NCBI GenBank assembly: GCA_049325535.1
Contig: JBMOKY010000001.1
Coordinates: 221,002-285,001, forward strand
Direction: 5' to 3'
From: Patescibacteria group bacterium
Lineage (GTDB): Bacteria; Patescibacteriota; Patescibacteriia; UBA10025; JAHIVO01
DNA: 64,000 nt
Under the pieces are notes generated by a model. That model saw nothing but the letters and a program-made list of their open reading frames with translations. It was not told the DNA's origin and searched no databases. A program made the position numbers and the translations under genes. Below are positions 10,771 through 37,267 of this stretch, one piece after another. Position 1 is the stretch's first letter. Every line of letters begins with the position of its first letter.

Positions 10771-10802
10771 ACCGTTTTTACAGGCTTGTTTTTGTATATT
10801 GA

Positions 10803-11018: not shown

Positions 11019-11480
11019 ATGAAACGAAAAGGTTTTACACTCATTGAGCTATTGGTCGTCATCGCGATTATCGGTATTTTGGCAACCATCGGTTTGGTTG
11101 CATTGAATGGTGCACGGGAAAAGGCTCGCGATGCCACTCGCAAATCAGATATTTCCCAGATCAAGACTGCCCTGGTCCTCTACTCAGATGACTACGGTAG
11201 CGCGTTCCCTGGAGGCGACTTCGCCGGTCTGGACGCTGCTTTGGTGACCGCATATCTCTCGAAATTACCGCATGATCCGCAGTCAGCCACCAATGGTGGT
11301 ACGCACGCGGACTATGCCTATGAATCATGCACAGTCAGCCAGCGCTCGACATTCTTACTGTATGCGCAGCTGGAATCCCCAAACAGCACTGATAACTTCT
11401 TCTACTTCTACGTAGCCGGTAACGGCGACTCAGGAGATAAGGTTTCTGGTGCCACCATGGGAGCATGTGCTGATCACTAA
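11019..11480 (+). CDS. pilA: Type IV major pilin (prepilin with class III signal)
   Basis: MKRKGFTLIELLVVIAIIGILA is a textbook prepilin leader, G|FTLIE cleavage/methylation site and hydrophobic helix. Two C-terminal Cys. Extended SD GAAAGGGGGTGA lies 6 nt upstream. Confidence 0.85.
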   Translation: MKRKGFTLIELLVVIAIIGILATIGLVALNGAREKARDATRKSDISQIKTALVLYSDDYGSAFPGGDFAGLDAALVTAYLSKLPHDPQSATNGGTHADYAYESCTVSQRSTFLLYAQLESPNSTDNFFYFYVAGNGDSGDKVSGATMGACADH

Positions 11481-11510
11481 TTTCGTGATTTGCAATCTCG
11501 TATACCAAAA

Positions 11511-11541
11511 GCGGTTTGCCATCCTGGCGAGCCGCTTTTTG
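11511..11541 (+). terminator. Rho-independent terminator after major pilin
   Basis: gcggtttgcc atcct ggcgagccgc stem (with G-U pairs) followed by ttttt. Confidence 0.55.
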
Positions 11542-11573
11542 GGTTTGGGGGTATCTGATATACTGATTCATAT

Positions 11574-12557: not shown

Positions 12558-14497
12558 ATTCACGTACGAAAATAATTTCTGGATTATTTATACTGGCACT
12601 GCTGGTTGTTTCCTTTTTTTCCGGTGAATGGAGCAAATGGTTGCAGGCAATCGTGCTGGTGTTTGCTTTTCTTTTAGCATTTCTCACTATCCGTACCTGG
12701 ACGCCGTCATCAGATTCATGGAGCCTGAGAAAAATCATATTCAGTCCGCACGCGTATCTCGTGCTATGGCTCGGGCTGGCAAGCGCCTCAATCGGCTGGT
12801 CGGTTGATTGGTACGATTCGCTGACTGCCACGTCACTGCTGATGGCCTATGCACTGGTGTGGTGGGCGGCATATCGGTTTTTCCGCACAGCCGATACCGT
12901 GCGCGCGCTGGCCTATGGTGTCGCCGGTACGGGGGTGGTAGCGTCGGTAGCCGGATTCATTCTCTATATCAATCAGACAGCGGATCGGCTATCAGGTTTC
13001 CTCTTCAATGCCAATGCTATTTCGAGCCTGCTGATACTGACCGCTCCGGTCGCTTGTGTCATGGCGGCACAGCAGACCCGAAAAAAATATCGCTGGCTTG
13101 TGGGCGTTGCCAGTGTTATCATCATCGCGGCGCTGGCGCTGACCTATTCGTTTACCGCTTGGGTGAGCGTCATGCCGTCCGCGCTCATCGGCCTGTACTA
13201 TTTCCGGCGATCAATATTCACCCGCCGACGGGTGATGGTGGCAGCAGGAATCGTGCTGATTGGCATTATCGGTATGATCGGATTCCGGTATGCTCAGTCA
13301 CGGGATGTACAGTCGGCGATACGGGTGTACCAGGCTATATCATCGAGTGAACTCAACCGTAGTTTTTCCCAGCGGATTAATTTTAATCTCTCAGCCGCTG
13401 ATATATTCCGTGATCATCCGTTGGTCGGTACCGGTATCAACACATTCCAGAGTGTCTATTCACAGTACGCGCGTACTATTCTCGAGCAGCCGCGCTACGC
13501 ACACAATTATTATATCCAGACCGCCGCCGAGCTTGGGATCATCGGCATGGTGGCACTGCTGGGATTTTTACTGATGGCTGGTCGGCAGGTGCTGCACGTT
13601 GTGCGTGCTACTCCGGATCCGCGGCATCGGCATATTCTGGTAGGACTGTCGCTCGGCGTATTAGCATCCGCGGTGCATGCTGTGTTTGATTTTGGTTGGC
13701 AGTTTCCTGCGGTGTTCCTCATGTTTTGGGTGATAGCCGGCGCGCTGGCCGGACAGTATGCCGGGCATGGACGCGGCCAGTCGGAGCAAGGAGCCGAGCC
13801 TTTACCCCGTCGCGCCATGCTCATCAATGCGCTGTATCTGGTGTTTGGGTTAGCGGTACTCCTTCGCGGGTTATCGGTTTTTATGGGTGTGAATGCATTT
13901 GATACAGCCGCCATTCACGTCACCCGTGATGAAATACCCGAGGCAGCTGCAGCATATGAACAGGGTTTGCGCTACGATCCTGATCCGACTATGCTGGCGC
14001 AGTATTCGGGATTGGTCATCCAGCACCGTACTGAGCTGGAAGCGGTGCAGTTTGACGGCTTACTACCTCGCGTGGAGGCCATGGTGCGTCGCTCGCCGGA
14101 TGATTACCTGGCACGGTGGACATACGGGCGGGTATTATATTCGCTGAAGCGGTATGACGAGGCCATTACCGAGTATACTCAGGCCATCGCATTGAATCCG
14201 AAATTCCGTCCTGACCTTTACTATGATTTAGCCTATACGTATTTTATTACGGATCAGCCAGCGCTCGCTAAGCAGACTATCGCCCATATACTCGTAGAAT
14301 ACGGACCGACCACGCTGACGCGCAATCCAAATCTGCCTGATCAGCTCGCGTCTTTGCATTATCTGCTGGGGGAACTGTACCGGACGGAGGGAAACGCTGA
14401 AGCGGCGCGAGAACGCTATGAAATGGCCTTGGAACTCAACCGCTGGTACACGCCAGCCTATGCCGGCCTGGATGCGTTGTATCAGGAGGGGAGTTAG
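12554..14497 (+). CDS. Wzy_C (O-antigen ligase / O-oligosaccharyltransferase-like) membrane protein with C-terminal TPR repeats
   Basis: ATGA overlap with the upstream GT2 stop. About 10 TM helices with a large loop typical of WaaL/PglL/TfpO. C-terminal ~200 aa contain TPR-like repeats (YDEAITEYTQAIALNP...). Confidence 0.7.
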   Translation: MNSRTKIISGLFILALLVVSFFSGEWSKWLQAIVLVFAFLLAFLTIRTWTPSSDSWSLRKIIFSPHAYLVLWLGLASASIGWSVDWYDSLTATSLLMAYALVWWAAYRFFRTADTVRALAYGVAGTGVVASVAGFILYINQTADRLSGFLFNANAISSLLILTAPVACVMAAQQTRKKYRWLVGVASVIIIAALALTYSFTAWVSVMPSALIGLYYFRRSIFTRRRVMVAAGIVLIGIIGMIGFRYAQSRDVQSAIRVYQAISSSELNRSFSQRINFNLSAADIFRDHPLVGTGINTFQSVYSQYARTILEQPRYAHNYYIQTAAELGIIGMVALLGFLLMAGRQVLHVVRATPDPRHRHILVGLSLGVLASAVHAVFDFGWQFPAVFLMFWVIAGALAGQYAGHGRGQSEQGAEPLPRRAMLINALYLVFGLAVLLRGLSVFMGVNAFDTAAIHVTRDEIPEAAAAYEQGLRYDPDPTMLAQYSGLVIQHRTELEAVQFDGLLPRVEAMVRRSPDDYLARWTYGRVLYSLKRYDEAITEYTQAIALNPKFRPDLYYDLAYTYFITDQPALAKQTIAHILVEYGPTTLTRNPNLPDQLASLHYLLGELYRTEGNAEAARERYEMALELNRWYTPAYAGLDALYQEGS

Positions 14498-14546
14498 GTT
14501 ATACTGTCTATATAATCATTGGTGTGGCGAGGGTGCATGCGGCCGT

Positions 14547-15035
14547 ATGAGTAAAGGGTATACATTAATCGAACTGCTGGTAGTGCTGGCCATCATCGGG
14601 ATATTAGCCGCCATCGGCATCACTACTCTCAATGGTACTCGTGGTCAGGCGCGGGATGCAACTCGGTTTTCAGATTTTGAAGCACTGCGCGGAGCGCTGG
14701 AATTGTACGCGGATACGTACGGCAGCTATCCCCGACCCGTGACGGCCGGTGGCGCCGGACCGGACCTGAGTACCGCCGGACTCAATGGGACGATTTTTTC
14801 CCAGACGGATAATCCTCTGTCACCGGCGTATATGAGCCGGTCTGTCCGCGATCCGATCAATGACGCGACCAAGGGACTGTACTATTATTATGACACGAAT
14901 GATTCGCCTACGGTGAACCACCGGAATTACGTCATCTGTTTCCACAAGGAAAGCCGGGATCAGCAGCGGTTCTACTATTATTCGACCGCGGTCCAAGGTT
15001 ACGGACCGGTATGCCCGACATTACCCGCAACTTAA
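14547..15035 (+). CDS. Type IV pilin (second prepilin)
   Basis: MSKGYTLIELLVVLAIIGILAAIG, a G|YTLIE prepilin site. The track ORF begins upstream at 14418, but the pilin start is at 14547. Confidence 0.8.
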   Translation: MSKGYTLIELLVVLAIIGILAAIGITTLNGTRGQARDATRFSDFEALRGALELYADTYGSYPRPVTAGGAGPDLSTAGLNGTIFSQTDNPLSPAYMSRSVRDPINDATKGLYYYYDTNDSPTVNHRNYVICFHKESRDQQRFYYYSTAVQGYGPVCPTLPAT

Positions 15036-15046
15036 ATGCAATCCGT

Positions 15047-15469
15047 ATGTATCATACCAATCAGCGCGGCATCAGCATATTGGCCGTGCTTATCATCATC
15101 ATAACTGCCTGCCTGGTCATCGGCGGCGGATTTCTGCTTATCAATCAGGAAAAAGCTCGGACGCGCGATGCCAAGCGCATGTCTGATATGACGCGGGTAC
15201 AGGCGGCTTTTGAGCTGATGTTCAATCAGACGGCCAGTTATGCCATGGCGGCCACCGACGGATGCAGCCAGACCGGCATGCCGGTGAGCAGCTGTGCCCT
15301 GGGCACATTTCTCCCCTCAATCGGACAATTCAAAGATCCCGGCAAATACGCCTATACCGTGACCGTGGTGCCTACGGAATCAACCTATCAGGTGACCTTT
15401 ACCCTAGAAAAAGACTACGGTACGCTCAAGGCGGGCAAACACACTCTGTCACCCGACGGTATCAAGTAA
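15047..15469 (+). CDS. Pilin-like protein with degenerate prepilin signal
   Basis: MYHTNQRGISILAVLIIIITA. Hydrophobic N-terminal helix after Gly, but position +5 is Ala rather than Glu. Confidence 0.55.
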   Translation: MYHTNQRGISILAVLIIIITACLVIGGGFLLINQEKARTRDAKRMSDMTRVQAAFELMFNQTASYAMAATDGCSQTGMPVSSCALGTFLPSIGQFKDPGKYAYTVTVVPTESTYQVTFTLEKDYGTLKAGKHTLSPDGIK

Positions 15470-15549
15470 ATAAATTTCTCACCGCACCGATGCCATGAAG
15501 GTCAGCTTTCATGGAGCGAGGGTTTTTCCTACCCAGAGAGGCTGTTTTT

Positions 15550-15558
15550 TGGTATAAT
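15550..15558 (+). promoter_or_regulatory. Extended -10 element (TGgTATAAT) immediately 5' of pilD internal ATGs
   Basis: tggtataat at 15550-15558. ATGs at 15562 and 15568 lie 4 and 10 nt downstream, suggesting a leaderless or short-leader pilD. Confidence 0.3.
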
Positions 15559-15561
15559 AAT

Positions 15562-16317
15562 ATGACTATGGATGGTTTTTTGGTGTTTATTTTAGGGTTG
15601 GTGGTGGGCAGTTTTATGAATGCCGTTATTTACCGTCTCCACAAAGGCGTCAGTTTCGTGCGGGGGCGATCATATTGCCCGCATTGCAAACATGAGCTTC
15701 ATTTTTTTGATTTAATCCCGATATTTAGTTTTATCATGCTGCGGGGTCGGTGCCGCTACTGTGCCAAGCGGATTTCCTGGCAGTATCCGCTGGTGGAACT
15801 AGCCACCGGCATAATTTTTTTCTCGCTCTGGTGGCAATTCGGTTTGTCCTGGGATTTGGGTGTATACGCAATATATTCGGTATTTCTATTGATTATATTT
15901 GTTTTCGATTTGCGGTACTATCTCATTCTCGACGTGGTAAGCGTCCCGGCTATGGTGATCGCGGCACTGGCATCCTATTTCATACTTGATCTCGATATAC
16001 TAAGCATGGCAATCGGCGCACTCATTGGTGGTGGTTTTTTTTATCTTCAGTATCTGGTTTCACGAGGGAAATGGATCGGCGGCGGCGATATCAGATTGGG
16101 TGTGGTGATGGGGCTGATGCTGGGTTTTCCCAATATACTTGTGGCGCTCTTCGTCGCCTATTGCGTCGGGTCGCTGGTGGGAATCGGACTTATCCTGGCT
16201 CATACCAAGCAGTGGAAAAGTCAGGTGCCATTTGGCACCTTTCTCAGCGCGGCAACTATCATTACGTTTTTTTTCGGCACTGCGGCGGTTAATTTTTATC
16301 GGGGATTCGTGTTATGA
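15562..16317 (+). CDS. pilD: Prepilin peptidase PilD (A24 family); start uncertain (15511/15562/15568)
   Basis: LVVGSFMNAVIYRL. Tetracysteine CPHCKH...CRYC. GGGD in KWIGGGDIRLG. Confidence 0.8.
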   Translation: MTMDGFLVFILGLVVGSFMNAVIYRLHKGVSFVRGRSYCPHCKHELHFFDLIPIFSFIMLRGRCRYCAKRISWQYPLVELATGIIFFSLWWQFGLSWDLGVYAIYSVFLLIIFVFDLRYYLILDVVSVPAMVIAALASYFILDLDILSMAIGALIGGGFFYLQYLVSRGKWIGGGDIRLGVVMGLMLGFPNILVALFVAYCVGSLVGIGLILAHTKQWKSQVPFGTFLSAATIITFFFGTAAVNFYRGFVL

Positions 16318-16976
16318 GTCGAAAGGGACATCAAGGATTTACGCTGGTTGAATTACTGATAGTCATGTTTATTATCGGCGTATTGACCGTCGCCATCATC
16401 ATCAATTTCAATCGTGGGGACAAAACACAGGACCTGCGTTCAGTCAGCACCCAACTAGTTCAACAGCTGCGCTTTGCGCAGGCCTATGCCACTGGTGGCA
16501 ATAGCATCAATTTTTGTCGGCAGGGGTCGTCCGATAATGAATATGAATCGTGCGCGGATGACGTGTTTTGCGGGGGAGGGGCCGGGGACTGTACCAATGG
16601 CGTCCCCCCGGGTGGGTATGGCATCCACTTTTCGGCGGTATCAAGTTATATGCTTTTTGCCGATACCAATACGCTTCAGCATTCCTATTCTACGGAAGAA
16701 CCAATCATCAGGCGAGAGGATACACAGCAGACCAACGTAGGGGTGACCGCGTATCGCGTCGGCGCGGATACGTATGTGCCGCAGACAAATCCGCTGGATG
16801 TCGTTTTTACCCCGCCCACCGGCGTCATCTCATTTCATATTGATGGTGCGCCTGTCACAGAAACTGAGGTTGCACTGCTGGTGAAGCACGGTGAATTGGA
16901 TTCCGTATGCAAAAAAATTACCATTAATCGCGTTTCAAATCATATCAGTGAAACGCAAAGCAATTGTACGCTGTGA
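16314..16976 (+). CDS. Pseudopilin / minor pilin (GspH/FimT-like)
   Basis: MSRKGHQGFTLVELLIVMFIIGVL, a G|FTLVE site. ATGA overlap with pilD. Confidence 0.75.
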   Translation: MSRKGHQGFTLVELLIVMFIIGVLTVAIIINFNRGDKTQDLRSVSTQLVQQLRFAQAYATGGNSINFCRQGSSDNEYESCADDVFCGGGAGDCTNGVPPGGYGIHFSAVSSYMLFADTNTLQHSYSTEEPIIRREDTQQTNVGVTAYRVGADTYVPQTNPLDVVFTPPTGVISFHIDGAPVTETEVALLVKHGELDSVCKKITINRVSNHISETQSNCTL

Positions 16977-17665
16977 AACGCAACTGCCACAATCAATCGG
17001 GTCAAACGCTTCTGGAGGTATTGTTTGCCATGGTTATCCTGCTGACCGCGCTGACTGCGACTATCGTACTGATCGTCAATAGTATCAACGCCAGCAAAGA
17101 AAGCCGCAATAAACTGATCGCGACGAGTCTCGCGCGGGAAGCGGTAGAGATCGCCAGGAATATGCGAGACAGCAACTGGGTGACGACGGCGCAGCGTACC
17201 TGCGATGCCGGGCCATATGCGGGGTTTGCGTGTGATGGCAATACGTTTTGTGGACTGGGTAATACCTGCGCGGCGGGTACCTGGGACGCGGGGTTAGTCG
17301 GAGCAAATCCGGCAGTTCCCGTCATCACCGGGAGCGATCCGTTTACGTTTGATTTTACTGCCACTGATTTTTCCGATGCGATCGCACGGGTACGGCTGCA
17401 GAATCATTTTTACCGGCAGGGCAGCGGGGTGACGGGAGCCCCCACTGAATTCTATCGTCTGGTGTTTATTAATCCGATTTGCCATGATGCCGCGGGCACT
17501 GAGTTTATCGTCGATCGTGCATCGAATGATGTCTGCGGAGCCGGCAGCGCCACCGGGTACGATGATACTGTCGGATATCGCGTCATCAGCGAAGTGCGCT
17601 GGGGTTCCACCTCCGGTCGTCGGGTGACCATTGAGGACCGTATTTATAATTGGCCGACGCTGTAG
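16964..17665 (+). CDS. Minor pilin (PilV/GspI-like)
   Basis: ...NQSGQTLLEVLFAMVILLTALTA, G|QTLLE with Glu at +5. Alternative GTG start at 16973. Confidence 0.7.
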   Translation: MYAVKRNCHNQSGQTLLEVLFAMVILLTALTATIVLIVNSINASKESRNKLIATSLAREAVEIARNMRDSNWVTTAQRTCDAGPYAGFACDGNTFCGLGNTCAAGTWDAGLVGANPAVPVITGSDPFTFDFTATDFSDAIARVRLQNHFYRQGSGVTGAPTEFYRLVFINPICHDAAGTEFIVDRASNDVCGAGSATGYDDTVGYRVISEVRWGSTSGRRVTIEDRIYNWPTL

Positions 17666-17666
17666 C

Positions 17667-18386
17667 ATGTTTCACCATAAACACAATCAACGCGGTTTTA
17701 CGCTCATCGAGATGATCGTGGCATTGGCGATTTTCAGTCTGACCATCCTTCTGGCGACCAATGTCTATCTGCTGGTGAGCAATACCCAGCGGCGCGCCTT
17801 GGCTGCACAGAAAATTCTCGATGATGTGCGGGCGCTGTTTGAGACGATGACGCAGGAGGTCCGCCTCGGTACTATCAATTATGCATATTATGACCAGCAG
17901 AATATTGATTTACATCCTGCCGCTGGAACTGGGATTCCAATCCTGGCAGTCATCAGCCAGACGGGTAGCCAGGATTTTTTCCGGCTCCAGTCAGAACGGG
18001 TACAGTTCTGTGAGGAAATAACAGTTGGCGATTGTGACGCCGGGGGGACGGGCTGGCTGGACGTGACACCCGAGGGCGTGCGTGTAGAAGATCTACGGTT
18101 TGTCATCACACCGAGCGCAGATCCGTTTACCGCCATCGAACCGGTTGACTGCGCGTTGGGAGGCGATGCGGACTGCACCGCCGCCGGCCTCGTGTCCTAC
18201 CGCTGCGCCGCGGATAATGCCTGTCGTTACTTTAGCAACGGATATAATATCCAGCCGCAGGTACTGATCATGATAAAATCGACTTCTGTCGCACCGCGTC
18301 TGATTGAACAGGCGTCGGTGGATATGCAGACCATCATCAGTTCGCGCATTATTACCAGTGCCATTCAGAACAGTTACCATGATTAA
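17667..18386 (+). CDS. Minor pilin (PilW/GspJ-like)
   Basis: MFHHKHNQRGFTLIEMIVALAIFSL, a G|FTLIE site. Confidence 0.75.
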   Translation: MFHHKHNQRGFTLIEMIVALAIFSLTILLATNVYLLVSNTQRRALAAQKILDDVRALFETMTQEVRLGTINYAYYDQQNIDLHPAAGTGIPILAVISQTGSQDFFRLQSERVQFCEEITVGDCDAGGTGWLDVTPEGVRVEDLRFVITPSADPFTAIEPVDCALGGDADCTAAGLVSYRCAADNACRYFSNGYNIQPQVLIMIKSTSVAPRLIEQASVDMQTIISSRIITSAIQNSYHD

Positions 18387-19785
18387 TCCACCGTACAACC
18401 AACAGAAGGGAATCGTGCTGGTCTATGTCTTGCTCATCATTTTTATCATTACCGCGATCTCTATCACCATATCGGTGGTGATCATCAATGAACTGAAATT
18501 GACCAGCACCGCAGCTGATGCGACGCAAGCCTATTATGCCGCCGAGTCCGGTATCGAGCGCGGCCTGTTTACCATCAAACGCATGCGTGCCGATGGGACG
18601 CAAACGCTGCAGGATGCGGTAGCGGCTATTCAAGCGCTGCAGGATTCCCTGACCAATGGTACGACCTATGACGATGCCGACACGAGCGAACAAACCGCGG
18701 TAATCGAAAATCAGGCAATCGCCGAGAATCATTTTGTCCAGGCGGATTATTATGATTTTGAGGATCCGCTCGACCTGGATGCCACACCAAATCAGATCGC
18801 CCAATCACTCGTCATCACCAATACCGGCACAGATCCTGATTCCTGGGCCGAGGTTTCCTGGATTGCCTGGGGTCAGGACGGTACGCTCGGGGAATCGGTG
18901 GCCGCCCGGAAGCTGATCGGTCCGACGGATCTGGCCAATGGCTGGACGATTTCCGATTTGGACGTGTTTGATGAGATCGACCCGAGAGGATACCGCATCC
19001 GCATCAAAGCGCTCTTCGGGGATATCTCCCGCATTTCCGTCATTCCGTATGACAGCCTCGGTGATCGGGTGGAGTTGCCATCGCTGATTGAGGTAAAGTC
19101 AGTAGGCCAACGTTCATCATATAAACAAGCGCTGACGGCAACCGTTCCATGGAAGATTCCGTTGTTTGGGCTGTATGATTATGTACTGTTTAGCGAAGGG
19201 GATTTACTCAAAACTATTATCCTGAGCAATCCGACCTATAGTTCTGGTCCGATCCATGTGGAGGAAGCACTGGCGGAGGGTGCCTCATGTAATTCCTGTG
19301 GCATCTGCCAAACCACTGCCGGATGGCTGGCCCTGTCGTGTCTGTCTCCTGCCGGTGACCGGGCGCAGTGCGGCACGCTGAGTTCAGCAGATGGCTGCTC
19401 TATCAGTCCGATTGCCCCGGCGGAAATCTGGGGGTACCGTCTGCCCATACCATTGAGCGTCCCTGAGGGAGACGAATATTATGTGTCGCTGCGCATGTTC
19501 TATCAGGGTATCTCCAGCGGTCGGGATATCGCCGTGGAAATAAGCGGCCAGTCGTCGGTCATCGACGATCAGGCAGGGGGTCAAAATGGTGCGTGGAAGA
19601 CGTGCACTATTCCCGAATCGTTTCCGGTGGGATCTAGTACGCTTCCGGTGAGCGATCCGTCCCGGGTCATTCAGATCAGCGACCATCCGTATGGCGCCGC
19701 TGCCGGCGGGTGGATTGCAGGTGACAGCGTGTTTGTCGATTGGTATCAACTAAGTACGTTCAAACTATTCCAAGACTGCCAATAA
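18379..19785 (+). CDS. PilX-like / large minor pilin
   Basis: ATGATTAA overlap with the previous gene. MINPPYNQQKGIVLVYVLLIIFIITAI N-terminal hydrophobic segment, as in PilX_N. Large Cys-containing C-terminal domain. Confidence 0.6.
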   Translation: MINPPYNQQKGIVLVYVLLIIFIITAISITISVVIINELKLTSTAADATQAYYAAESGIERGLFTIKRMRADGTQTLQDAVAAIQALQDSLTNGTTYDDADTSEQTAVIENQAIAENHFVQADYYDFEDPLDLDATPNQIAQSLVITNTGTDPDSWAEVSWIAWGQDGTLGESVAARKLIGPTDLANGWTISDLDVFDEIDPRGYRIRIKALFGDISRISVIPYDSLGDRVELPSLIEVKSVGQRSSYKQALTATVPWKIPLFGLYDYVLFSEGDLLKTIILSNPTYSSGPIHVEEALAEGASCNSCGICQTTAGWLALSCLSPAGDRAQCGTLSSADGCSISPIAPAEIWGYRLPIPLSVPEGDEYYVSLRMFYQGISSGRDIAVEISGQSSVIDDQAGGQNGAWKTCTIPESFPVGSSTLPVSDPSRVIQISDHPYGAAAGGWIAGDSVFVDWYQLSTFKLFQDCQ

Positions 19786-24665: not shown

Positions 24666-24804
24666 CACAGGAAAATCCATTTTTATAAAAAGCAATCCCT
24701 GATGCCTTCCGTAAAGATAGTTACATCCTTCATCTAAAATGAATTTGGGATGCTGCATGTATTGACAGCGATGGGAGCTGTGCTAGGATATGGATAATCA
24801 CTAT

Positions 24805-24915
24805 ATGGCAATAGCAAAAATGGCCCAATTGAACGAAAAACGTTACACCATCACTGGTGCGGGTCTTGTTATCGTCATTATTATTCTCATGAGCGGCTTG
24901 TTGGCTAGCCTGTAG
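24805..24915 (+). CDS. 36-aa single-TM peptide (MAIAKMAQLNEKRYTITGAGLVIVIIILMSGLLASL)
   Basis: Not in the ORF track (<60 aa). Possible -35 TTGACA upstream at 24763. A perfect terminator follows. Confidence 0.35.
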   Translation: MAIAKMAQLNEKRYTITGAGLVIVIIILMSGLLASL

Positions 24916-24943
24916 TTTCGGTACATACTACCCCAAACGACAG

Positions 24944-24970
24944 TCGAGCCGACGAGCGGCTCGATTTTTG
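24944..24970 (+). terminator. Rho-independent terminator
   Basis: tcgagccg acga cggctcga, a perfect 8-bp stem, then ttttt. Confidence 0.6.
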
Positions 24971-25028
24971 ATATCGCTGGAAACAAAATAAAAAAACACA
25001 TAGATTTTTTACACTACGGAGGTTGTAT

Positions 25029-25229
25029 ATGGAGAAAACGGTTGCTTTTGAGACTGCCCGCCGGATGCTGGGCAAGACATGTCGTTCGTGCGTGAGACGG
25101 GGCAGCGCCCACCCGGGCACTATCCAGGTCCGGGTGGCTGATCTGGACGGGGAAATGGGCATTACCGAAGAGATCTTCTGTACCCGCTCAAATCCGTGCG
25201 GTTATCGGCGTCATGTGCGCCGTTTCTAG
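25029..25229 (+). CDS. 66-aa four-cysteine small protein (possible zinc ribbon)
   Basis: GGAGG sits 6 nt before ATG 25029. CRSC...C...C pattern. A perfect 10-bp-stem terminator lies downstream. Confidence 0.5.
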   Translation: MEKTVAFETARRMLGKTCRSCVRRGSAHPGTIQVRVADLDGEMGITEEIFCTRSNPCGYRRHVRRF

Positions 25230-25262
25230 TCATAGGGCTTCATCATCGATGGACGTCCTACA

Positions 25263-25295
25263 CTCCCGCTACTGCTCGTAGCGGGAGTTTTTATT
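25263..25295 (+). terminator. Rho-independent terminator
   Basis: ctcccgctac tgctc gtagcgggag then tttttatt. The -35 TTGACA of the next promoter overlaps its T tract. Confidence 0.65.
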
Positions 25296-25414
25296 GACAG
25301 TCATTCTTAATATGCTACACTGCTGATAATCTTTGTTTATGTCCATAGCCGGGATTGATTGATCGGCCAGGAAATAACAGCACCTTCTCACTTTTAGCCA
25401 TGGAGGCATCCCCC

Positions 25415-25678
25415 ATGTCCACGTCGTGCCAGAATTTTTTTATCCCGAGTACCGTAATTGAGAAAATCACATTTCACGAGCTCTGTTGTGCCATTACGAG
25501 CAATTGCGGTACGCAAACGCTCTACGTTCGGCGAGATGAGATTAATAACGGCCGCGTCTCCTTTGTCGCGGCAGAGGATATGGAGAAAGTACAGCGGGCA
25601 ATTCATAGCCCAAATGTCCGACTCGTTCTTTTCCCTGATACGAAGCAGCGTTTCGATCGCTGGTTTGCTCAGTTTTAG
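25415..25678 (+). CDS. 87-aa hypothetical protein (MSTSCQNFF...)
   Basis: GGAGG sits 8 nt upstream of ATG 25415. A + strand terminator lies downstream. An equally long antisense ORF (25394-25681, minus) cannot be excluded. Confidence 0.35.
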   Translation: MSTSCQNFFIPSTVIEKITFHELCCAITSNCGTQTLYVRRDEINNGRVSFVAAEDMEKVQRAIHSPNVRLVLFPDTKQRFDRWFAQF

Positions 25679-25703
25679 CACTCAGATCGCCACTGTTTAC
25701 CGC

Positions 25704-25738
25704 CCGGGCGTTTACCAACTAACGCCCGGTCTTTTTAT
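25704..25738 (+). terminator. Rho-independent terminator
   Basis: ccgggcgtt taccaact aacgcccgg followed by tcttttta. Confidence 0.55.
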
Positions 25739-25861
25739 TTGCCAAAATGATATGAGTGAGTATAATGTGGATACCGTCGGTACGCGTTGACACTCCTCAC
25801 TATTTACTTCACTCGCGTGCGGGAATTCCGGTGCTTCATATTTGTACATCATAAGGTTTGT

Positions 25862-26193: not shown

Positions 26194-27192
26194 ATGGGTT
26201 CCATTCTTCCTTTTTTTGCCTTAGTCATATTATTATTTCTGTCCGCCTATACTGCCGCGTCAGAGGCGGCACTTCTGGCCGTGGGGCGAGTCAAAGTACG
26301 ATCATTCGTAAATGAAAAACGATGGGGAGCGATTGCCTTGCAGCGCCTGAAAGCCCGACCGAGAAGGATGATCATCACCACCCTGCTGGGTAATAATGTC
26401 GCTAATACCGGCGCGGCTGCGCTGGCTACCGTCCTAGCGAGCAACTATTTCGGTTCAGTCGGGATTGGGGTCGCCACCGGCGTATTGACGGTTCTGATTT
26501 TAATTTTCGGTGATATCATACCGAAATCCTTTGCCGCTCGGCACGCTGGGTATTTTGCGCTTCGATTGGCACCATCGGTGTATTGGATGGGGTATATCTT
26601 ATTCCCGTTTATCCGTTTTTTTGAATGGGTGACCAGTTTTGTCGACCGCCTGGTACTTGAGTCGCAGCACGACCGGATGACCGTCGCGGATATCCAATCC
26701 ATGGTACAGTTTGGCGTGGAAGAAAAGGTCGTACATCCGCATGAACAATTTATCATCAATCGTGCATTGACGTTTACCGATGGCACGGTCCGCGATGTCA
26801 TGATTCCCCTGGAAAAGGCATTTGTGCTGCCCAGTGATACAGAGTTGGAGGCCGGCTTCCGACAGATTATTGCCACGGGGTATTCGCGAGTCCCGATTTA
26901 TACCGGCGATCGACATCATATCGTCGGATTGGTACTGGTCAAGGATGTCGCACGAGAAATGGCTGAAGACTGGCCGCATGAGCGCTTAATCGAAATCGCC
27001 CGACCCCCGATCATGGTACTGGAGCATATGCAGATTGATTATCTGTTCCGGATTTTTCAGAAACAGCATATGCACATGGCTATTGTCTACAATCGCGAGC
27101 AGCGCGCCGTGGGTATCGTGACGCTCGAGGATTTGATCGAGGAGCTAGTCGGGGAAATCAATGACGAAAGCGATGAACAAACGTCTCATTAG
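26194..27192 (+). CDS. CNNM/CorC/HlyC-family membrane protein (DUF21 + CBS pair)
   Basis: Four N-terminal TM helices followed by tandem CBS-like domains. The C-terminal CorC_HlyC domain appears absent or short. Confidence 0.75.
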   Translation: MGSILPFFALVILLFLSAYTAASEAALLAVGRVKVRSFVNEKRWGAIALQRLKARPRRMIITTLLGNNVANTGAAALATVLASNYFGSVGIGVATGVLTVLILIFGDIIPKSFAARHAGYFALRLAPSVYWMGYILFPFIRFFEWVTSFVDRLVLESQHDRMTVADIQSMVQFGVEEKVVHPHEQFIINRALTFTDGTVRDVMIPLEKAFVLPSDTELEAGFRQIIATGYSRVPIYTGDRHHIVGLVLVKDVAREMAEDWPHERLIEIARPPIMVLEHMQIDYLFRIFQKQHMHMAIVYNREQRAVGIVTLEDLIEELVGEINDESDEQTSH

Positions 27193-27195
27193 CCA

Positions 27196-28017
27196 TTGCC
27201 ACGTATGGACTTTATTCCCTTAAGTGCATTATTCCTTGGGGCTGGTGCGCTGGCCATCGGCTACTACCGATGGGTACCGTCGGCAGAGGCATTACGCAGC
27301 CGTTTACCGAATCGCGCTACTCCGAGTAGTATCGTGCTGACCCTGGTCATGGGTGGGGCGGCATGGTATATCCTCTCTACTTTTTCTGGTTTTTCTGCGG
27401 TGAGCCGGATGCTGATGCTCATTTTCGCGCTGTTGTTTTTTGAATCGCTATTTTTGATTGGTTTGCGCTGGGTGCGCGTTAATTTTATCGCCCTGATACT
27501 GGCGCTTGCCGTGACTGCCGTGCTGTTCTGGGCGCAACTACAATATCCCACGTTCTTCGGGATTAACACGATTATTATCATGGCTACTATGGGCGCAGCG
27601 ACCCTACTGATCCGGCTCGGGTATCTCCGTACACCGATTTTATTCATCGTGGCCAGCCTGTGGACCGTCTATGATATCATGCTGGTTGAATTTGTATTGC
27701 CCGCGGTGACCCGGCCATCGACCAATCCCGTGCCGTCATTCCTGTATCCCGCCGTCACCGTCGGCCAGCTGAGTTTAGGGAGCGGTGATTTTATGTTTTT
27801 GACGTTGTTTGCCTTGATTGTTATGCGTGATTTTGGCGCACTGGCGGCAAGCATTTTAGTTGCCGCAGAAGTGGTCGGACTATTGATGACTGGACTGCTT
27901 TTGCCAGAGCAAGGATTTCTTGTGCCATTCCTGGTGGTTATGACGCCTATTTTCTTTCTGGTATACTTATTAGTGTATCTTGTCCGCCGCACATCATCGG
28001 AAACGAAGTCTGTATGA
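27196..28017 (+). CDS. Polytopic membrane protein with YD + GxGD motifs (presenilin/SPP/prepilin-peptidase-like intramembrane aspartyl protease candidate)
   Basis: About nine hydrophobic helices. WTVYDIML in helix 6, LSLGSGDFMF in helix 7, LVPFL (PAL-like) in the last helix. Confidence 0.5.
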   Translation: MPRMDFIPLSALFLGAGALAIGYYRWVPSAEALRSRLPNRATPSSIVLTLVMGGAAWYILSTFSGFSAVSRMLMLIFALLFFESLFLIGLRWVRVNFIALILALAVTAVLFWAQLQYPTFFGINTIIIMATMGAATLLIRLGYLRTPILFIVASLWTVYDIMLVEFVLPAVTRPSTNPVPSFLYPAVTVGQLSLGSGDFMFLTLFALIVMRDFGALAASILVAAEVVGLLMTGLLLPEQGFLVPFLVVMTPIFFLVYLLVYLVRRTSSETKSV

Positions 28018-29567
28018 ACCACATCAAGATTTCTTTTGCCACTCCGCCAATGCTTCGGCTGTATGGGTATTCGCCAGATTCGCCTGAAGCGATTTTTGAT
28101 CAGGTACAATCCGGGTGTCAACCTTCATCGTTGCGGGGGGATTTTATCGTGGTCGCCGAGGGTACCGACGCCCAATCAGGTAAGCCATTGACGGTTTTTA
28201 TCACTTCCGTCATCAGTGCCGTTCCGTATTACTATGTCATGACGGATACGACCTGCGTGCACGGTCCGATGATCATCGATTGCGTACGCAGAGCCGGTTT
28301 GACCTGGCAGTGGAACTGGTCGGCCATCGGGCAGATAGCGCTGTTTGATCATGTACTCGGTGACGCCTCGCTGCACCCCCAGGTACAGCGGGTGCCCGCC
28401 GCTAGTATTGTGATCATTCGAGGGACGCAGCGAGAATTCATGACGGAGCCGTTTTGGCAGAATCTGTACCATCAATCAGGGGGGCATACCAGTATCAGTG
28501 ACGCAGCGGATATGCTTGTGGCTCTGCTCGGCGAATTGCCCAGCTACAAGCCGCTGTCGCTCTCCTTGAGCGCGGGCTATGACAGCCGCGTACTCCTGGC
28601 GGGGCTGGCGTATCTCAAACGTACGGCGCAGACGGCCTGTATGGGTGCGCCTGACGCCACTGATCCGCGCATTGCCGAGCGGCTCGCGCGGGTGATCGGA
28701 TATGGGTATCATCGGGTAGCATTGAGCACAGATCAGTATGTATCCGAAGCAGAACGAATCCTGGCGATGACGAGCGGTGAAAAAGTCTTTTGCCACTGGC
28801 ATACAGGCATATATGCTCATACGGTCGGATTTGATCCACAGGGGGTGCATTTGGCAGGGTCAAATGGAGAATTCGCCCGTAGCTATTTTTTTGATAAAGG
28901 ATTTGTGGCACGCATGATGGATGTGTTGCCGATTGGGCATGGCGATTGGTGGCTGGCACGTGGTCACGCAGCTCCGCGGACAGTCGGCGAAGTAGTACGG
29001 CATATTGATCCGCAGTCGCCGTTTGCACAGGCGCTTGATATTCGCGCGCAACTCGCTTCAGTATATCCGCCGTATCTGAACTTTGGTGATGGTATGGATG
29101 TATTTTATGCTATGCAGCGGGTACGTAATTTTATTGGGTTGGGTATGGCACTGTATCGGGCTGATTTCCCGACGATGTCTCCCTTTCTGGATGTTCGCTT
29201 CATACAGGTGATGGCTCGGCTTCGCCGCCAAGATAAATTAGCCAATGCCATGCATCGGGGGATTATCGAAAAACTGCAACCTACCCTACTGACATTTCCG
29301 ACTGATGAAACGGACGTTCCTATGGGAGCGCGGCCATCAGGGATGTATTTCCGTCGACCGCGGCCAATCAAAGGGTATTCTCGGTCCACTGAAGCACAGC
29401 GATTGCCACAGGTGCGCCAGTGGGCACACCGGGGCTTTCGTTTGCTTGGTGGCAGCGAAAGTTCTGCTGAGGTCAGTGCCGTGGTAGAGCGCTGGAATCT
29501 CGGTATCACCGTCGGCGCATTTTCCGAATTGCTGCAGCGATCCGGCGTGAATGACGTCGCTGATTAA
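28014..29567 (+). CDS. Asparagine-synthetase-family (AsnB C-domain) ATP-dependent amidotransferase/ligase lacking N-terminal glutaminase nucleophile
   Basis: PP-loop-like LSLSAGYDSRVLLAG (SGGxDS variant). No Cys at position 2. ATGA overlap with the upstream membrane protein. Confidence 0.65.
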   Translation: MNHIKISFATPPMLRLYGYSPDSPEAIFDQVQSGCQPSSLRGDFIVVAEGTDAQSGKPLTVFITSVISAVPYYYVMTDTTCVHGPMIIDCVRRAGLTWQWNWSAIGQIALFDHVLGDASLHPQVQRVPAASIVIIRGTQREFMTEPFWQNLYHQSGGHTSISDAADMLVALLGELPSYKPLSLSLSAGYDSRVLLAGLAYLKRTAQTACMGAPDATDPRIAERLARVIGYGYHRVALSTDQYVSEAERILAMTSGEKVFCHWHTGIYAHTVGFDPQGVHLAGSNGEFARSYFFDKGFVARMMDVLPIGHGDWWLARGHAAPRTVGEVVRHIDPQSPFAQALDIRAQLASVYPPYLNFGDGMDVFYAMQRVRNFIGLGMALYRADFPTMSPFLDVRFIQVMARLRRQDKLANAMHRGIIEKLQPTLLTFPTDETDVPMGARPSGMYFRRPRPIKGYSRSTEAQRLPQVRQWAHRGFRLLGGSESSAEVSAVVERWNLGITVGAFSELLQRSGVNDVAD

Positions 29568-29571
29568 AATC

Positions 29572-30111
29572 ATGTGTATGAAATCAGCAATTAGACATTT
29601 CCGTTATTCATTTACTCTACGCCCTTTTCGCCTGTCGGACGCGCATGATTTGGTCCGTCATATCAATGATCCGGTTATTGCGCGGAACACCGCTCATATT
29701 CCGTATCCATACCGCCAGCGTGATGCTCTGCAATTCTTACGGCGTCAAATCATCCACCGTAGGAATAAGCCTGCAACTGATGTCACGTTCGCCATTATCA
29801 TCGATGGATCGGTGGTTGGTGGATTGGGGTTGCATCATATTGAACAGCGGCACCAGGCTGAGCTGGGGTATTGGCTATCCCGCCAATACCGCGGCCGAGG
29901 CATCATGACCCGGGCGGTCAGGGAAGCACTGCGCTATGGTTTCGTCCGACTGCACCTCCGTAGAATATATGCCTACACATACACGTATAATCCGGCATCA
30001 GCCCGCGTACTGGAAAAAAACGGGTTTGTCCGGGAGGGAGTGCTCCGTAAGCATGCCAAAAAGAACGGCCGTTTGATTGATGATATTCTGTATGCGAAGG
30101 TACGGGTATAG
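29572..30111 (+). CDS. GNAT N-acetyltransferase (RimJ/RimL-like)
   Basis: FTLRPFRLSDAHDL...GLHHIEQRHQAELGYWLSRQYRGRGIMTRAVREALRYGF. Starts 5 nt after the AsnB-like stop. Confidence 0.8.
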   Translation: MCMKSAIRHFRYSFTLRPFRLSDAHDLVRHINDPVIARNTAHIPYPYRQRDALQFLRRQIIHRRNKPATDVTFAIIIDGSVVGGLGLHHIEQRHQAELGYWLSRQYRGRGIMTRAVREALRYGFVRLHLRRIYAYTYTYNPASARVLEKNGFVREGVLRKHAKKNGRLIDDILYAKVRV

Positions 30112-30160: not shown

Positions 30161-30967
30161 ATGAATATCAATGGTATGTCAGCGGAGCAACAACTAACAA
30201 AAAAACAACGGCGAGACCTTCGTCGACAGGAAAAACTCCAAAGCCGCGAACAGTTTGAACGGCAGAAATCAGTCCGCAGAGTCGTGATGTGGGTCGTTAT
30301 CGTGCTCGTTTTGGGGGGGATTGTGTATGCATTGACACAATTAGGTAGCAGCACAAATACCGATCAATTGTTAACCGACCGGATAACTCCTCAAGATCAT
30401 GCGTTAGGCGGCGCCGACGCCCCAGCCCAACTGATCGAATATAGCGATTTTCAGTGTCCGGCTTGCGCGGGATATGAAGATGTACTCAGTCAGATACGGG
30501 AGGAGTTTGGTGATCAATTGTTGTTTGCGTATCGACATTTTCCCTTGCGTTCCATTCATCCAAATGCCCAAATCTCCGCCGAAGCGGCTGAAGCGGCCGC
30601 ATTACAGGGCAAATTTTGGGACATGCACGCTCAGTTGTTTCAAACCCAACAGGAGTGGTCTGGCGTCAGCGATCCGACGGATATGTTTGTCGGATATGCT
30701 AACGACATTGGGCTCGATGTCGATCAATTCCGGACGGCGCTCGGTACTGATCAGGTCAGCGATCCGGTGAATGCTGATTATCAGAGTGGAGTCGCGGCCG
30801 GTGTGAATGCCACGCCGACTTTTTATCTGAACGGGGTGAAGCTGGACAATCCGCGGAGCGCTGATGAATTCCGCACCGAGATTCAGAAAGTGCTTGATGC
30901 TGCGGAAAATACGACAGACACCAATGCCGCTACGAACGGCAGTTCTGACACCGCAACCAATCAGTGA
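30161..30967 (+). CDS. Membrane-anchored DsbA-family thiol:disulfide oxidoreductase
   Basis: N-terminal TM anchor. Thioredoxin fold with a CPAC active site (FQCPACAGYEDVL). Confidence 0.75.
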   Translation: MNINGMSAEQQLTKKQRRDLRRQEKLQSREQFERQKSVRRVVMWVVIVLVLGGIVYALTQLGSSTNTDQLLTDRITPQDHALGGADAPAQLIEYSDFQCPACAGYEDVLSQIREEFGDQLLFAYRHFPLRSIHPNAQISAEAAEAAALQGKFWDMHAQLFQTQQEWSGVSDPTDMFVGYANDIGLDVDQFRTALGTDQVSDPVNADYQSGVAAGVNATPTFYLNGVKLDNPRSADEFRTEIQKVLDAAENTTDTNAATNGSSDTATNQ

Positions 30968-32019
30968 TGCCAGAATCGAGAAAACATTTCCGTTGGTTAC
31001 CGTGGGTGATACTGAGTACAGCGCTGGCGGGGTTTGTTGATGCGAGCTATCTGACGGTGGAGCATTATCGCGGAGTCGGGGTTGGGTGCTCGATCATCCA
31101 CGGCTGTGATACCGTACTGACCAGCCAGTATGCCGAAGTATTTGGTATCCCCACCGCGCTGCTGGGCGCTTTTTTTTATTTATCGATCACAGTTTTGAGT
31201 ATCATTTATTTGGACGGAAGAAATGGGATAGTATTGCGCGTATTGGCATGGTTGACCGTACCGGGGATGGCCGTGACGGCGGTGCTCGTATATTTACAGG
31301 GCGTCGTGATCGGAGCGTGGTGCCAGTACTGTTTGGTATCGGCGGTGACCTCGACACTGTTGTTTGTCATGGGAATGTATATTCTCAAAAATTCATCATC
31401 GATCGCCCAGAGCCGACGTCGGCTGGTTATGGCCACCGGAAATGCCGGCAAGGTCAGGGAAATGCGCCACATTTTTTCGGATATGGGCATCGATATCCTC
31501 AGTGCACGCGAGGCGGGGGTGGATAGCGAGGCAGTTGAAGACGGGACGACGCTGAAGCAAAACGCCCTGAAAAAGGCCCGGCACGTGGCCCGGCAGGTCA
31601 CCGATTGGGTGGTCGCGGATGATACCGGGCTGTTTGTCGATGCGCTCCAGGGTGCGCCGGGAGTGTATAGCGCCCGCCACGCCGGTGTAGGTGCCTCAGA
31701 TGATGCGATTCGCGATAAAGTGTTACGCGATATGGCGAATATAGCCTCCAAAGATCGCACTGCTCGTTTTATCAGCGCAGTCGCTGCCGTCGGTCCGGCG
31801 GGCCAGGAATCTGTTTTTATCGGAACACTTCGCGGGCGAATCAATACGACACCGGCCGGCGAAGCGCGTCCGCATTTGCCCTATGATCAGATTTTCATTC
31901 CTGAGGGATCAACCAAGACGTTGGCCGAAATGTCCGATGATGAAAAAAATTCCATCAGTCATCGGCGAATCGCATTTGATCAGTTGCGCGCGTTTCTCAA
32001 AAAAGAATTTACTGATTGA
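30967..32019 (+). CDS. VKOR (vitamin K epoxide reductase-like) domain fused in-frame to Ham1/RdgB non-canonical NTP pyrophosphatase domain
   Basis: N-terminal 4-TM region with loop Cys pair CSIIHGC and TM CQYC. Residues from about 155 read LVMATGNAGKVREMRHIF...FIPEGSTKTLAEMSDDEKNSISHR (Ham1). No stop between the domains. gTGATG overlap with the DsbA stop. Confidence 0.7.
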   Translation: MPESRKHFRWLPWVILSTALAGFVDASYLTVEHYRGVGVGCSIIHGCDTVLTSQYAEVFGIPTALLGAFFYLSITVLSIIYLDGRNGIVLRVLAWLTVPGMAVTAVLVYLQGVVIGAWCQYCLVSAVTSTLLFVMGMYILKNSSSIAQSRRRLVMATGNAGKVREMRHIFSDMGIDILSAREAGVDSEAVEDGTTLKQNALKKARHVARQVTDWVVADDTGLFVDALQGAPGVYSARHAGVGASDDAIRDKVLRDMANIASKDRTARFISAVAAVGPAGQESVFIGTLRGRINTTPAGEARPHLPYDQIFIPEGSTKTLAEMSDDEKNSISHRRIAFDQLRAFLKKEFTD

Positions 32020-32338: not shown

Positions 32339-32362
32339 TCGCGTCAGTTTCTTAACTTAAAG

Positions 32363-32386
32363 GCGACCTCATAGATGGTCGCTTTT
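32363..32386 (+). terminator. Rho-independent terminator
   Basis: gcgacc tcataga ggtcgc followed by ttttaag. Confidence 0.55.
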
Positions 32387-32444
32387 AAGTATTCATTGTG
32401 CCCTTACCATTTTTGAAAATATCGGCTAGAATAGTGGTGGAGGT

Positions 32445-32768
32445 ATGTTGAGAATTTTCGCTAACCTTAGAAAACTAAAACACCCAGAATATTGGGTTAT
32501 TGCTAGTGTCGTTCTGATTTTACCGCCGACATATTTTTGGTTTCTCGGGATGCTCCATACCGTCGGCATACCCATCACCATATCTACGCAATTATTGGAG
32601 CGCATGTCCATACCGCTGGCAAGTACTTTGGTGTATGTATGTCCGTTTGGCGCGCTGCTCGCGGGATACATCGCATGGCGCATGATGCGCAATGGATTTA
32701 CTATGCTGATCGTATTATTGAGTTCGCTGTTTGTTATTTTAAGTGTCGTGTCAGTGGCCTTGGGCTAA
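32445..32768 (+). CDS. Small membrane protein (3 predicted TM helices)
   Basis: Hydrophobic segments VIASVVLILPPTYFWFLGML, LVYVCPFGALLAGYIAW and MLIVLLSSLFVILSVVSVAL. Confidence 0.45.
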   Translation: MLRIFANLRKLKHPEYWVIASVVLILPPTYFWFLGMLHTVGIPITISTQLLERMSIPLASTLVYVCPFGALLAGYIAWRMMRNGFTMLIVLLSSLFVILSVVSVALG

Positions 32769-36643: not shown

Positions 36644-37267
36644 ATGCTGTTTTCCCTTCTGTCCGAGCCTATGTTGCTTATGGTCTGGGTCGCGGGAATC
36701 GTCTATGCTATCACGATTCACGAATTTTCCCATGCCCTGGCCGGGTATTGGCTCGGGGATATGACCGCGCGTGATCAGAAGCGTCTAACCCTCAATCCCC
36801 TGTCACATATTGATCCATTTGGCTTTATCGTTTTATTGTTGGCTGGTTTTGGTTGGGGGAGACCCGTGCCGTTTAATCCCTATAATCTCCGCTATACCCG
36901 GTGGGGTCCGGTACTCGTGGCAATCGCCGGTCCGATTTCTAACATAGTCAGTTTCCTCATTTTTGGGTTCACCTTGAAATTTTTACTCCAGGCTGGGGTA
37001 ATCGATGAGCAGAATTTATTGACAACCTTTTTTATCGTCCTGCTGAATATCAATCTGGTGTTGGCTGTGTTTAATTTGTTCCCCGTCCCGCCTCTGGACG
37101 GATCAAAACTCATCCGGGCGTTGGCCCCGCCGCGATTTGAGCATGCGGTTTTGACACTTGAGCGATATGGCCCCTGGGTGCTGATCGCCTTTGTCATATT
37201 TGGCGGGAACCTTTTTTCGGGCTTGTTTAGCACGTTATTCAGCTGGTCATTGCGGATTTTTGGGTAA
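36644..37267 (+). CDS. M50-family site-2 protease-like zinc metalloprotease
   Basis: HEFSHAL (HExxH) in a TM helix. Multi-TM, 207 aa. Confidence 0.75.

Follow-up and report, generated by a model that had tools for sequence, protein, structure and literature searches.

A same-strand gene run in a Patescibacteria genome

The stretch of DNA analyzed here, referred to as the window, spans 64,000 nucleotides (nt) of contig JBMOKY010000001.1 (positions 221,002 to 285,001 of the forward strand) from assembly GCA_049325535.1 of a Patescibacteria group bacterium. Three closely spaced genes on its + strand are the subject of this work: a homologue of presenilin/signal peptide peptidase (SPP)-fold GxGD aspartyl intramembrane proteases (27205..28017; 270 amino acids (aa) from ATG 27205), an AsnB-superfamily PP-loop adenylating enzyme without the glutaminase nucleophile (28014..29567; 517 aa), and a RimJ/RimL-like GNAT acetyltransferase (29572..30111; mechanical open reading frame (ORF) 29551-30111, 186 aa). 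The original prediction had joined the three into a coupled module that would cleave and then modify a secreted or membrane substrate. The reading that we consider probable, with good confidence, is that of three independent genes, namely a minimal nine-helix member of the presenilin/SPP superfamily, an AsnB-superfamily envelope or glycan amide ligase, and a RimJ/RimL-type GNAT of the genomic backbone, which would lie side by side as functionally unconnected neighbours in the compact genome, coded almost on a single strand, of a Kerfeldbacteria-related Patescibacteria (candidate phyla radiation, CPR) bacterium.

Called mechanically, the protease ORF starts at TTG 27196 (27196-28017, +, 273 aa), and residue numbers throughout follow this 273-aa version. 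The start is most likely ATG 27205, which opens MDFIP 12 nt beyond the stop codon of the preceding CNNM gene (TAG 27190-27192), because the homologues and an identical 270-aa database protein (P0001) all begin at MDF. The DNA confirms the predicted ATGA overlap of the protease and AsnB-like genes at 28014-28017. TAA at 29565-29567 closes the AsnB-like gene, and ATG 29572 is the most probable start of the GNAT (alternative 29578); the close spacing first described for this junction stands, with a gap of 4 nt in place of 5. Upstream, the run probably opens with the gene of a CNNM/CBS (CorC/GldE-like) membrane protein (26194..27192, +; CNNM match at 3.6e-45, plus CBS), and downstream it continues with a DsbA-like thioredoxin (30161-30967, +) and a VKOR-Ham1/RdgB fusion (30964-32019, +), both assigned by Pfam matches. 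From CNNM to VKOR/Ham1, six genes thus form one same-strand run, with a tRNA-Pro gene and terminator-like hairpins upstream and another such hairpin downstream (32355-32390). Co-transcription of the six is likely but uninformative about function, and the tight spacing of the protease, AsnB-like, and GNAT genes is not exceptional in this window, where 12 of the 62 same-strand ORF pairs overlap, 6 of them by exactly 4 nt, and about half are spaced by 15 nt or less.

Predicted fold and family of the membrane protein

The AlphaFold2 (AF2) model of the membrane protein, built from a 31-member alignment, has a mean predicted local distance difference test score (pLDDT) of 91.5 and a predicted template modelling score (pTM) of 0.87, and consists of nine long helices plus one short amphipathic helix. 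The YD motif falls in the sixth long helix (residues 146-167) and GSGD at the start of the seventh (196-213), directly preceded by a short predicted β-hairpin (186-195, with strands 186-189 and 192-195); PFL lies on the loop before the last helix. The model and the DNA coordinates bear out the earlier description of a nine-helix, 273-aa protein with YD in helix 6 and GSGD in helix 7. In a Foldseek search against the PDB, the top 24 matches were all presenilin-1/2, SPPL2a, or archaeal PSH, with probabilities of 0.99-1.00; a comparison with archaeal PSH had been proposed at the outset. The best match in a viral fold library was a giant-virus signal peptide peptidase.

Profile comparisons point in the same direction. 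A 52-sequence profile matches PSH at 4.4e-12 (HMMER) with YD and GxGD in register, the window YD aligning with the YD of PSH (Asp162) and GSGD with its GMGD; the same profile matches presenilin-1 at 0.009, with GSGD opposite GLGD and PFL opposite PAL. Two of the 52 distant relatives match the Pfam SPP model PF06550, the better at 1.7e-22. With PFL standing for PAL, the window motifs match both the published definition by (Y/F)D, G(L/I/F)GD, and PAL (PMC7366577) and the alternative one by PhiYDPhiPhi and PhiGPhiGD (PMC12067869). Of the hallmarks of family A22, the nine-transmembrane-helix fold, (Y/F)D in transmembrane helix (TM) 6, and GxGD in TM7 are all present; in place of PAL, the sequence reads PFL, and its invariant P244 aligns with the PAL proline of presenilin-1. 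On the strength of its modelled fold, its motifs, and these profile links, we assign the membrane protein as a presenilin/SPP-type (A22-like) GxGD homologue in a bacterium. The protein had been related to either A22 or A24 GxGD enzymes: fold, motifs, and profiles uphold the A22 half, and the A24 half falls, as there is no match to PF01478 or PF06750 and no A24 (prepilin peptidase) structure among the top fold matches. It is a second GxGD protein besides PilD (A24), as anticipated, since PilD is encoded by a separate gene of the window (15511-16317).

Several results count against this assignment. The window protein has no Pfam or NCBIfam match at E ≤ 1, PF01080, PF04258, and PF06550 included, and the search of Pfam and TIGRFAM suggested with the original prediction therefore matched no A22 or A24 model. 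A profile restricted to the window's own clade finds no match among PDB sequences, and the alignment by hhalign of this clade with two archaeal SPP-type sequences is not significant. The sequence link is thus indirect, running through a few bridging sequences, and structure and motifs carry most of the weight. Taken together, the window protein is a divergent bacterial member of the known presenilin/SPP superfamily that annotation libraries do not recognize.

Conservation of the putative catalytic motifs

The three motifs map to the + strand as follows. Y159-D160 (27670..27675, context VYDIM) lies in TM6 and provides the first putative catalytic aspartate; G195-D198 (27778..27789, context LGSGD) lies at the start of TM7 and provides the second; P244-L246 (27925..27933) is the PAL equivalent before TM9. 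A word-indexed search of 5.8 billion proteins returned only 31 clusters, all unannotated, four of which bear organism names (Patescibacteria or Candidatus Kerfeldbacteria). In the alignment of these 31, residues D160, G195, G197, D198, P244, and P251 are invariant. The family profile, run against 1.84 billion representatives, retrieved 66 proteins at E ≤ 1e-3, and across the 52 that were aligned, at ~20% identity (down to ~18%), exactly D160, G195, D198, and P244 are invariant, with G197 at least 90% conserved. Both aspartates, whose conservation had been singled out as decisive, are therefore retained in the close and the wide set alike. Because the four residues stay invariant down to ~18% identity, the motif set of these aligned proteins can be taken as more than chance. 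P185, V187, and G190 are conserved in the strand region that precedes GSGD. The alanine of PAL is replaced by Phe or Tyr in the window's clade (PFL here) and is Ala or Val in a second clade described below.

Two further residues never vary among the 31 proteins of the window's clade (clade 1): E83 (27442-27444, within TM3, context LLFES) and R140 (end of TM5). Neither could be matched to a known presenilin feature. Two clade-1 genes at 44% and 31% identity, on CAZWTD010000017.1 (L018) and CAYGGS010000033.1 (L024), are titled ‘uncultured Gammaproteobacteria bacterium’; either these bins are mislabelled or the family extends beyond Patescibacteria.

A protein of this fold might have kept its architecture and lost proteolysis, serving as a scaffold, as a channel for ion leak, or as a membrane-embedded transferase employing both aspartates in a different chemistry. 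Such a role would agree with the marked divergence of the family, which is invisible to the Pfam A22 models, with the membrane-proximal charges of E83 and R140, and with the pairing of the sister clade with an adenylating ligase, unusual for a plain protease. We nevertheless consider it unlikely: the sole invariant positions in 52 sequences belong to the three protease signature motifs and lie in the correct helices, and the counterpart of presenilin's substrate-docking strand before GxGD is both predicted and conserved.

Absence of a conserved three-gene module

Exact-protein look-ups and a scan of GTDB species genomes yielded 18 distinct related protease loci. A tblastn search of their flanks, out to ~8 kb from the protease gene, found an AsnB-like gene at none of the 18. 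The closest relative (L009, 62% identity) has the order CNNM, protease, GNAT, DsbA, and VKOR/Ham1, with no gene between protease and GNAT, whose ORF begins ~20 nt past the end of the protease match; in a Kerfeldbacteria genome (L002), a DUF3179 gene occupies this position. These two closest relatives are the only ones of the 18 with a GNAT near the protease, and in both synteny extends over the whole backbone; at none of the other loci does the GNAT or the DsbA/VKOR pair occur in the window's arrangement. A census of 101 proteins encoded next to the protease genes is headed by RecA (7) and FtsK (6), together with SSB, EF-P, XseA, Translin, and ribosomal proteins; the conserved neighbours of the protease gene are housekeeping genes only. 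Conversely, no presenilin-fold gene of any clade and no RimJ-like GNAT occurs at ~55 loci of ligase homologues. The AsnB-like gene fills a variable slot and stands beside the protease only in this genome.

The proposal of a single pathway, in which the GxGD protease would cleave a secreted or membrane-bound peptide (such as a pilin or the product of a small ORF) that the ligase and GNAT would then amidate or acetylate, draws on features that are real: the ATGA overlap and the 4-nt spacing, a same-strand run bounded by terminator-like sites, small conserved membrane ORFs nearby, and identical protease (P0001) and ligase (P0032) proteins, both with records on 4 contigs of at most 7351 bases. It fails the test of three-gene synteny in both directions, its protease-GNAT slot is empty in one close relative and filled by a DUF3179 gene in the other, the ligase family resides in glycan clusters, 4-base overlaps are common in the window, and no partner genes of lasso peptides or other ribosomally synthesized and post-translationally modified peptides (RiPPs) are present. 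We therefore hold this pathway to be very improbable. A conserved three-gene maturation system is not real, and the ligase and GNAT are mere neighbours of the protease. The DsbA/VKOR pair, which had been drawn into the same theme, likewise accompanies the protease only in the two close relatives.

The AsnB-like ligase

The 517-aa ORF begins MNHIK, lacks Cys2, and cannot be extended upstream. Its PP-loop variant SAGYDS (S186-S191; 28569..28586, +) aligns with SGGLDS of E. coli AsnB, and S186, G188, D190, S191, and R192 are invariant in 26 homologues, in which position 2 shows no conserved Cys; there is no GATase_6/7 match. Pfam Asn_synthase scores 20 bits against a cut-off of 21, with many homologues carrying PF00733, and TIGR01536 (AsnB) scores 20 bits against 267. 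The 26-homologue profile matches E. coli AsnB (1ct9) at 4e-5, β-lactam synthetase at 8e-4, CarA at 0.029, and human ASNS too, aligning SLSAGYDSR with the PP-loop LLSGGLDSS and also the PFLD motif. In the AF2 model (pLDDT 93.1), a β-rich N-domain (1-150) is joined to an α/β C-domain, and the modelled N-domain would fit a vestigial Ntn-type domain like those of β-lactam synthetase and CarA. By its sequence, the protein thus classifies as a remote AsnB-superfamily PP-loop enzyme without the glutaminase nucleophile, in keeping with the glutaminase-less, SAGYDS(R)-bearing ligase of the original prediction.

Other identities were considered and set aside. An ordinary glutamine-dependent AsnB with a mis-called start is at odds with the non-extendable ORF and with homologues that share its length and start. 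For a lasso-peptide cyclase, a transglutaminase-like B protein or precursor should be nearby; neither is adjacent, nor found among the top 25 neighbour families of 31 loci. The model of exosortase-associated amidotransferases (TIGR03108) scores 12.7 bits against a cut-off of 816.9, and no exosortase occurs among the window ORFs scanned or the top 25 neighbour families of ligase homologues. Both of these last comparisons, put forward with the original prediction, were thus rejected on scores and context.

The genes flanking ligase homologues at the 31 loci (n=99) are instead rich in GT4/GT1 glycosyltransferases (13), Glyco_trans_1_2 (11), S-adenosylmethionine (SAM) methyltransferases (8), and FkbM methyltransferases (4), along with polysaccharide flippases. 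The enzyme would be an ATP-dependent, carboxylate-adenylating ligase that amidates a sugar/glycan or envelope carboxylate with ammonia or another amine; such a carboxylate is the likeliest predicted substrate because the relatives sit in glycan-synthesis clusters. A recent horizontal acquisition finds no support in the gene's composition, which is host-like; gain here and loss in the relatives are indistinguishable.

A second bacterial clade paired with a PaaK-like ligase

The 52-sequence profile also retrieved ~30 further clusters of 241-304 aa without Pfam annotation (clade 2), which keep YD, G[LV]GD, and P[AV]M and align with the window's clade by hhalign at a probability of 95.6% (E 1.3e-8). 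In all eight clade-2 loci that were read, a PaaK-like (phenylacetate-CoA-ligase family) adenylating enzyme is encoded immediately upstream on the same strand, at spacings from a 4-nt overlap to ~100 nt, and these ligases are mutually 36-59% identical. Four of the loci come from metagenomes or other assemblies (L027 3518-5846; L079 4015-5726; L080, near-identical to L079; L081 3481-5861). The named ones, cultured Actinomycetes, are Streptomyces sp. NBC_01324, Streptomyces sp. NBC_01435, Nonomuraea gerenzanensis, and Embleya sp. NBC_00896; they comprise L082 (5538-8044, on the Streptomyces sp. NBC_01324 plasmid NZ_CP108387.1, proteins WP_327341057.1 and WP_327341058.1) and L083, L084, and L085. 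RefSeq annotates the Streptomyces pair as “phenylacetate--CoA ligase family protein” plus “hypothetical protein”. Some copies appear truncated or frameshifted (L079, L080, L083). The pair looks like a conserved two-gene cassette.

This pairing raises the question of whether bacterial presenilin-fold enzymes as a rule operate with a carboxylate-adenylating partner, the AsnB-like gene being a non-orthologous replacement of the PaaK-like one. Both partners adenylate carboxylates, and the PaaK-like ligase stands upstream in 8/8 clade-2 loci in a pair conserved down to 36% identity. The two are, however, of unrelated superfamilies and lie on opposite sides of the protease gene; an adenylating enzyme adjoins the clade-1 gene in none of the 18 loci, and no PaaK-like gene is present in the window or any CPR locus. 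A replacement of this kind is accordingly quite improbable. We give a similarly slim chance to the broader proposal that bacterial presenilin-fold enzymes act with carboxylate-adenylating ligases (PaaK-like in Actinomycetes, possibly AsnB-like here), in which case the window's protease-ligase pair would be a functional analogue and not neighbours by chance. If it were true, the protease would cleave a membrane segment, and the carboxyl terminus so exposed would be linked by the ligase to an amine acceptor, as an ATP-driven anchoring or maturation system resembling those of sortases or rhombosortases.

Predicted orientation and proposed function

Lysine and arginine residues were counted per loop across the 31 clade-1 sequences and read by the positive-inside rule. 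Their means are 3.5 in loop 1-2, 2.1 in loop 3-4, 2.7 in loop 5-6, 1.8 in loop 7-8, and 2.0 in the C-tail, as against 0.06 in the N-tip, 0.1 in loop 2-3, 0.3 in loop 4-5, 1.35 in loop 6-7 (over 28 residues), and 0.4 in loop 8-9. Because the positive charges are concentrated in loops 1-2, 3-4, 5-6, and 7-8 and the C-tail, we infer an N-out/C-in protein, the orientation of SPP/SPPL and opposite to presenilin. Within that family, the SPP/SPPL orientation is associated with substrates of type II orientation (N-in), for example signal peptides and tail-anchored proteins (PMC7366577).

We propose that the membrane-embedded D160 (TM6) and D198 (TM7) would activate water, and that an unwound substrate helix would be docked, as in presenilin/SPP, by the conserved strand before GSGD and by PFL before TM9. 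Given the SPP-like orientation, the predicted substrates would be segments of type II orientation (N-in), namely remnant signal peptides, signal anchors, or small tail-anchored proteins. A constitutive role in membrane clearance or processing would fit, because the protease gene lacks a conserved partner and stands among housekeeping genes.

Weighing on the other side of the three-independent-genes reading are several points. The orientation has the positive-inside rule as its only basis. In the sister clade, the presenilin-fold proteins are tightly paired with an adenylating enzyme of another kind. The AsnB-like gene is host-like in GC content, GC at third codon positions (GC3), and codon usage, and the ATGA overlap and single gene run permit co-translation of protease and ligase in this one organism; a lineage-specific functional link between the two is conceivable.

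Two side observations concern potential substrates and other intramembrane proteases. A 41-aa ORF (24790-24915, +) with a C-terminal hydrophobic helix, tail-anchored and type II-like, is preceded by a promoter-like site (24762-24789) and followed by a terminator-like hairpin (24942-24966). Syntenic copies are conserved in L009 (69% across 29 aa) and L002 (59% across 34 aa). An SPP-type protease could cut a segment of this kind; nothing links the two. Separately, a Peptidase_M50 (site-2-protease-like) gene of ~207-215 aa is present in the window (36644-37267, +), L003 (7123-7770), and L010 (9096-9773), ahead of the genes for EF-G and for ribosomal S12/S7 (the latter by synteny with L003). The presenilin-like gene immediately precedes it in L003 and L010, placing two intramembrane proteases side by side.

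The GNAT and other neighbouring genes

The GNAT matches Acetyltransf_3 at 3.2e-30 (106 bits), in agreement with its original description as RimJ/RimL-like, and scores below the equivalog cut-offs of RimL (57 vs 184) and RimJ (40 vs 190). It is part of the conserved backbone of the close relatives. CNNM is 76% identical and syntenic in L002, and DsbA plus VKOR/Ham1 are syntenic in L002 and L009 only. The single ORF of the VKOR-Ham1 fusion (30964-32019) combines a VKOR domain (residues 14-136) with a Ham1/RdgB non-canonical nucleoside triphosphate (NTP) pyrophosphatase (154-343), overlaps the preceding DsbA-like gene by 4 nt, and recurs as the same fusion in L002 and L009. A more distant relative (L005 3127-3915/L015) also has a DsbA-like gene, differently arranged and two genes upstream of the protease gene. 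Within three genes of the protease gene in either direction, Thioredoxin_4 proteins are encoded at 3 of the 18 loci of the census, which hints weakly at a neighbourhood for envelope biogenesis.

Beyond the run, a very hydrophobic 107-aa ORF (32445-32768, +) without a Pfam match is ~49% conserved and syntenic in L002 and L009. Upstream, an ORF-poor 1.2 kb between NDK and tRNA-Pro (24700-25860) holds small units with a promoter-like site and/or a strong terminator-like hairpin; terminators lie at 25262-25288 and 25704-25729. Within it, a 107-aa ORF (25355-25678) is conserved in L009 (61%), and a Cys-rich 68-aa ORF (25023-25229) is not conserved. An Rfam scan of this ORF-poor upstream region found tRNA-Pro alone, and L002 carries LiaF-like and GIY-YIG genes in place of the stretch. 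A type IV pilus cluster (5873-19785, +) encodes a PilO-like protein, the PilB ATPase (7382-9145), PilC (9565-10770), PilD, a PilX-like protein, and N-methyl pilins at 10947 and 16314. A GT2 glycosyltransferase (11574-12557) and a Wzy_C O-antigen-ligase-like/TPR protein (12524-14497) directly follow a pilin gene, which suggests pilin glycosylation.

Relation to known systems

In the literature searched, presenilin/SPP-type proteases are reported from eukaryotes and archaea, and bacterial GxGD enzymes are treated only as prepilin peptidases (PMC2947513, PMC9263693, PMC7366577). No mention of a bacterial presenilin homologue was found there, which does not exclude a prior description. If confirmed, a bacterial homologue this small and free of co-factors would carry the family into the third domain of life, bear on its origin, and offer simple systems for studying its mechanism; the sister clade occurs in cultivable Streptomyces. 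The locus also holds a lesson for annotation: functional coupling should not be read from the tight packing of genes in CPR genomes.

The two neighbours have their own counterparts. With β-lactam synthetase (1jgt) and CarA (1q15), the window ligase shares the PP-loop core SxGxDS, PFLD, and a β-rich N-domain without the Cys nucleophile, but the similarity is only remote (profile E 4e-5 to 0.03), and its relatives are found in glycosyltransferase/methyltransferase clusters, not in β-lactam or RiPP clusters. With RimJ/RimL, the GNAT shares Acetyltransf_3 yet scores far under the equivalog cut-offs.

Among aspartyl proteases, PilD and FlaK (A24) are of the same polytopic GxGD type known from bacteria, but their fold and family differ from those of the window protein. 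Compared with presenilin-1/2, the catalytic subunit of γ-secretase, the window protein has the opposite predicted orientation and lacks the long cytosolic loop, so that autoproteolytic maturation is not expected; genes for nicastrin, APH-1, or PEN-2 were not seen in the window. Eukaryotic SPP/SPPL2a (9k92/9k93) share 14% identity with it, and SPPL2a is the closest in shape; unlike them, the window protein has no luminal PA domain, glycosylation, or endoplasmic reticulum (ER)-retrieval signal. Archaeal PSH/MCMJR1 (4hyc/4hyg; PF06550; MEROPS A22) differs in that the window protein is bacterial, is not detected by PF06550 or PF04258, has a short TM6-TM7 loop (~27 residues) and PFL for PAL, and shows no significant direct profile-profile similarity to the two archaeal sequences compared. 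In lifestyle, the window protein comes closest to this co-factor-free archaeal PSH (PMC2947513).

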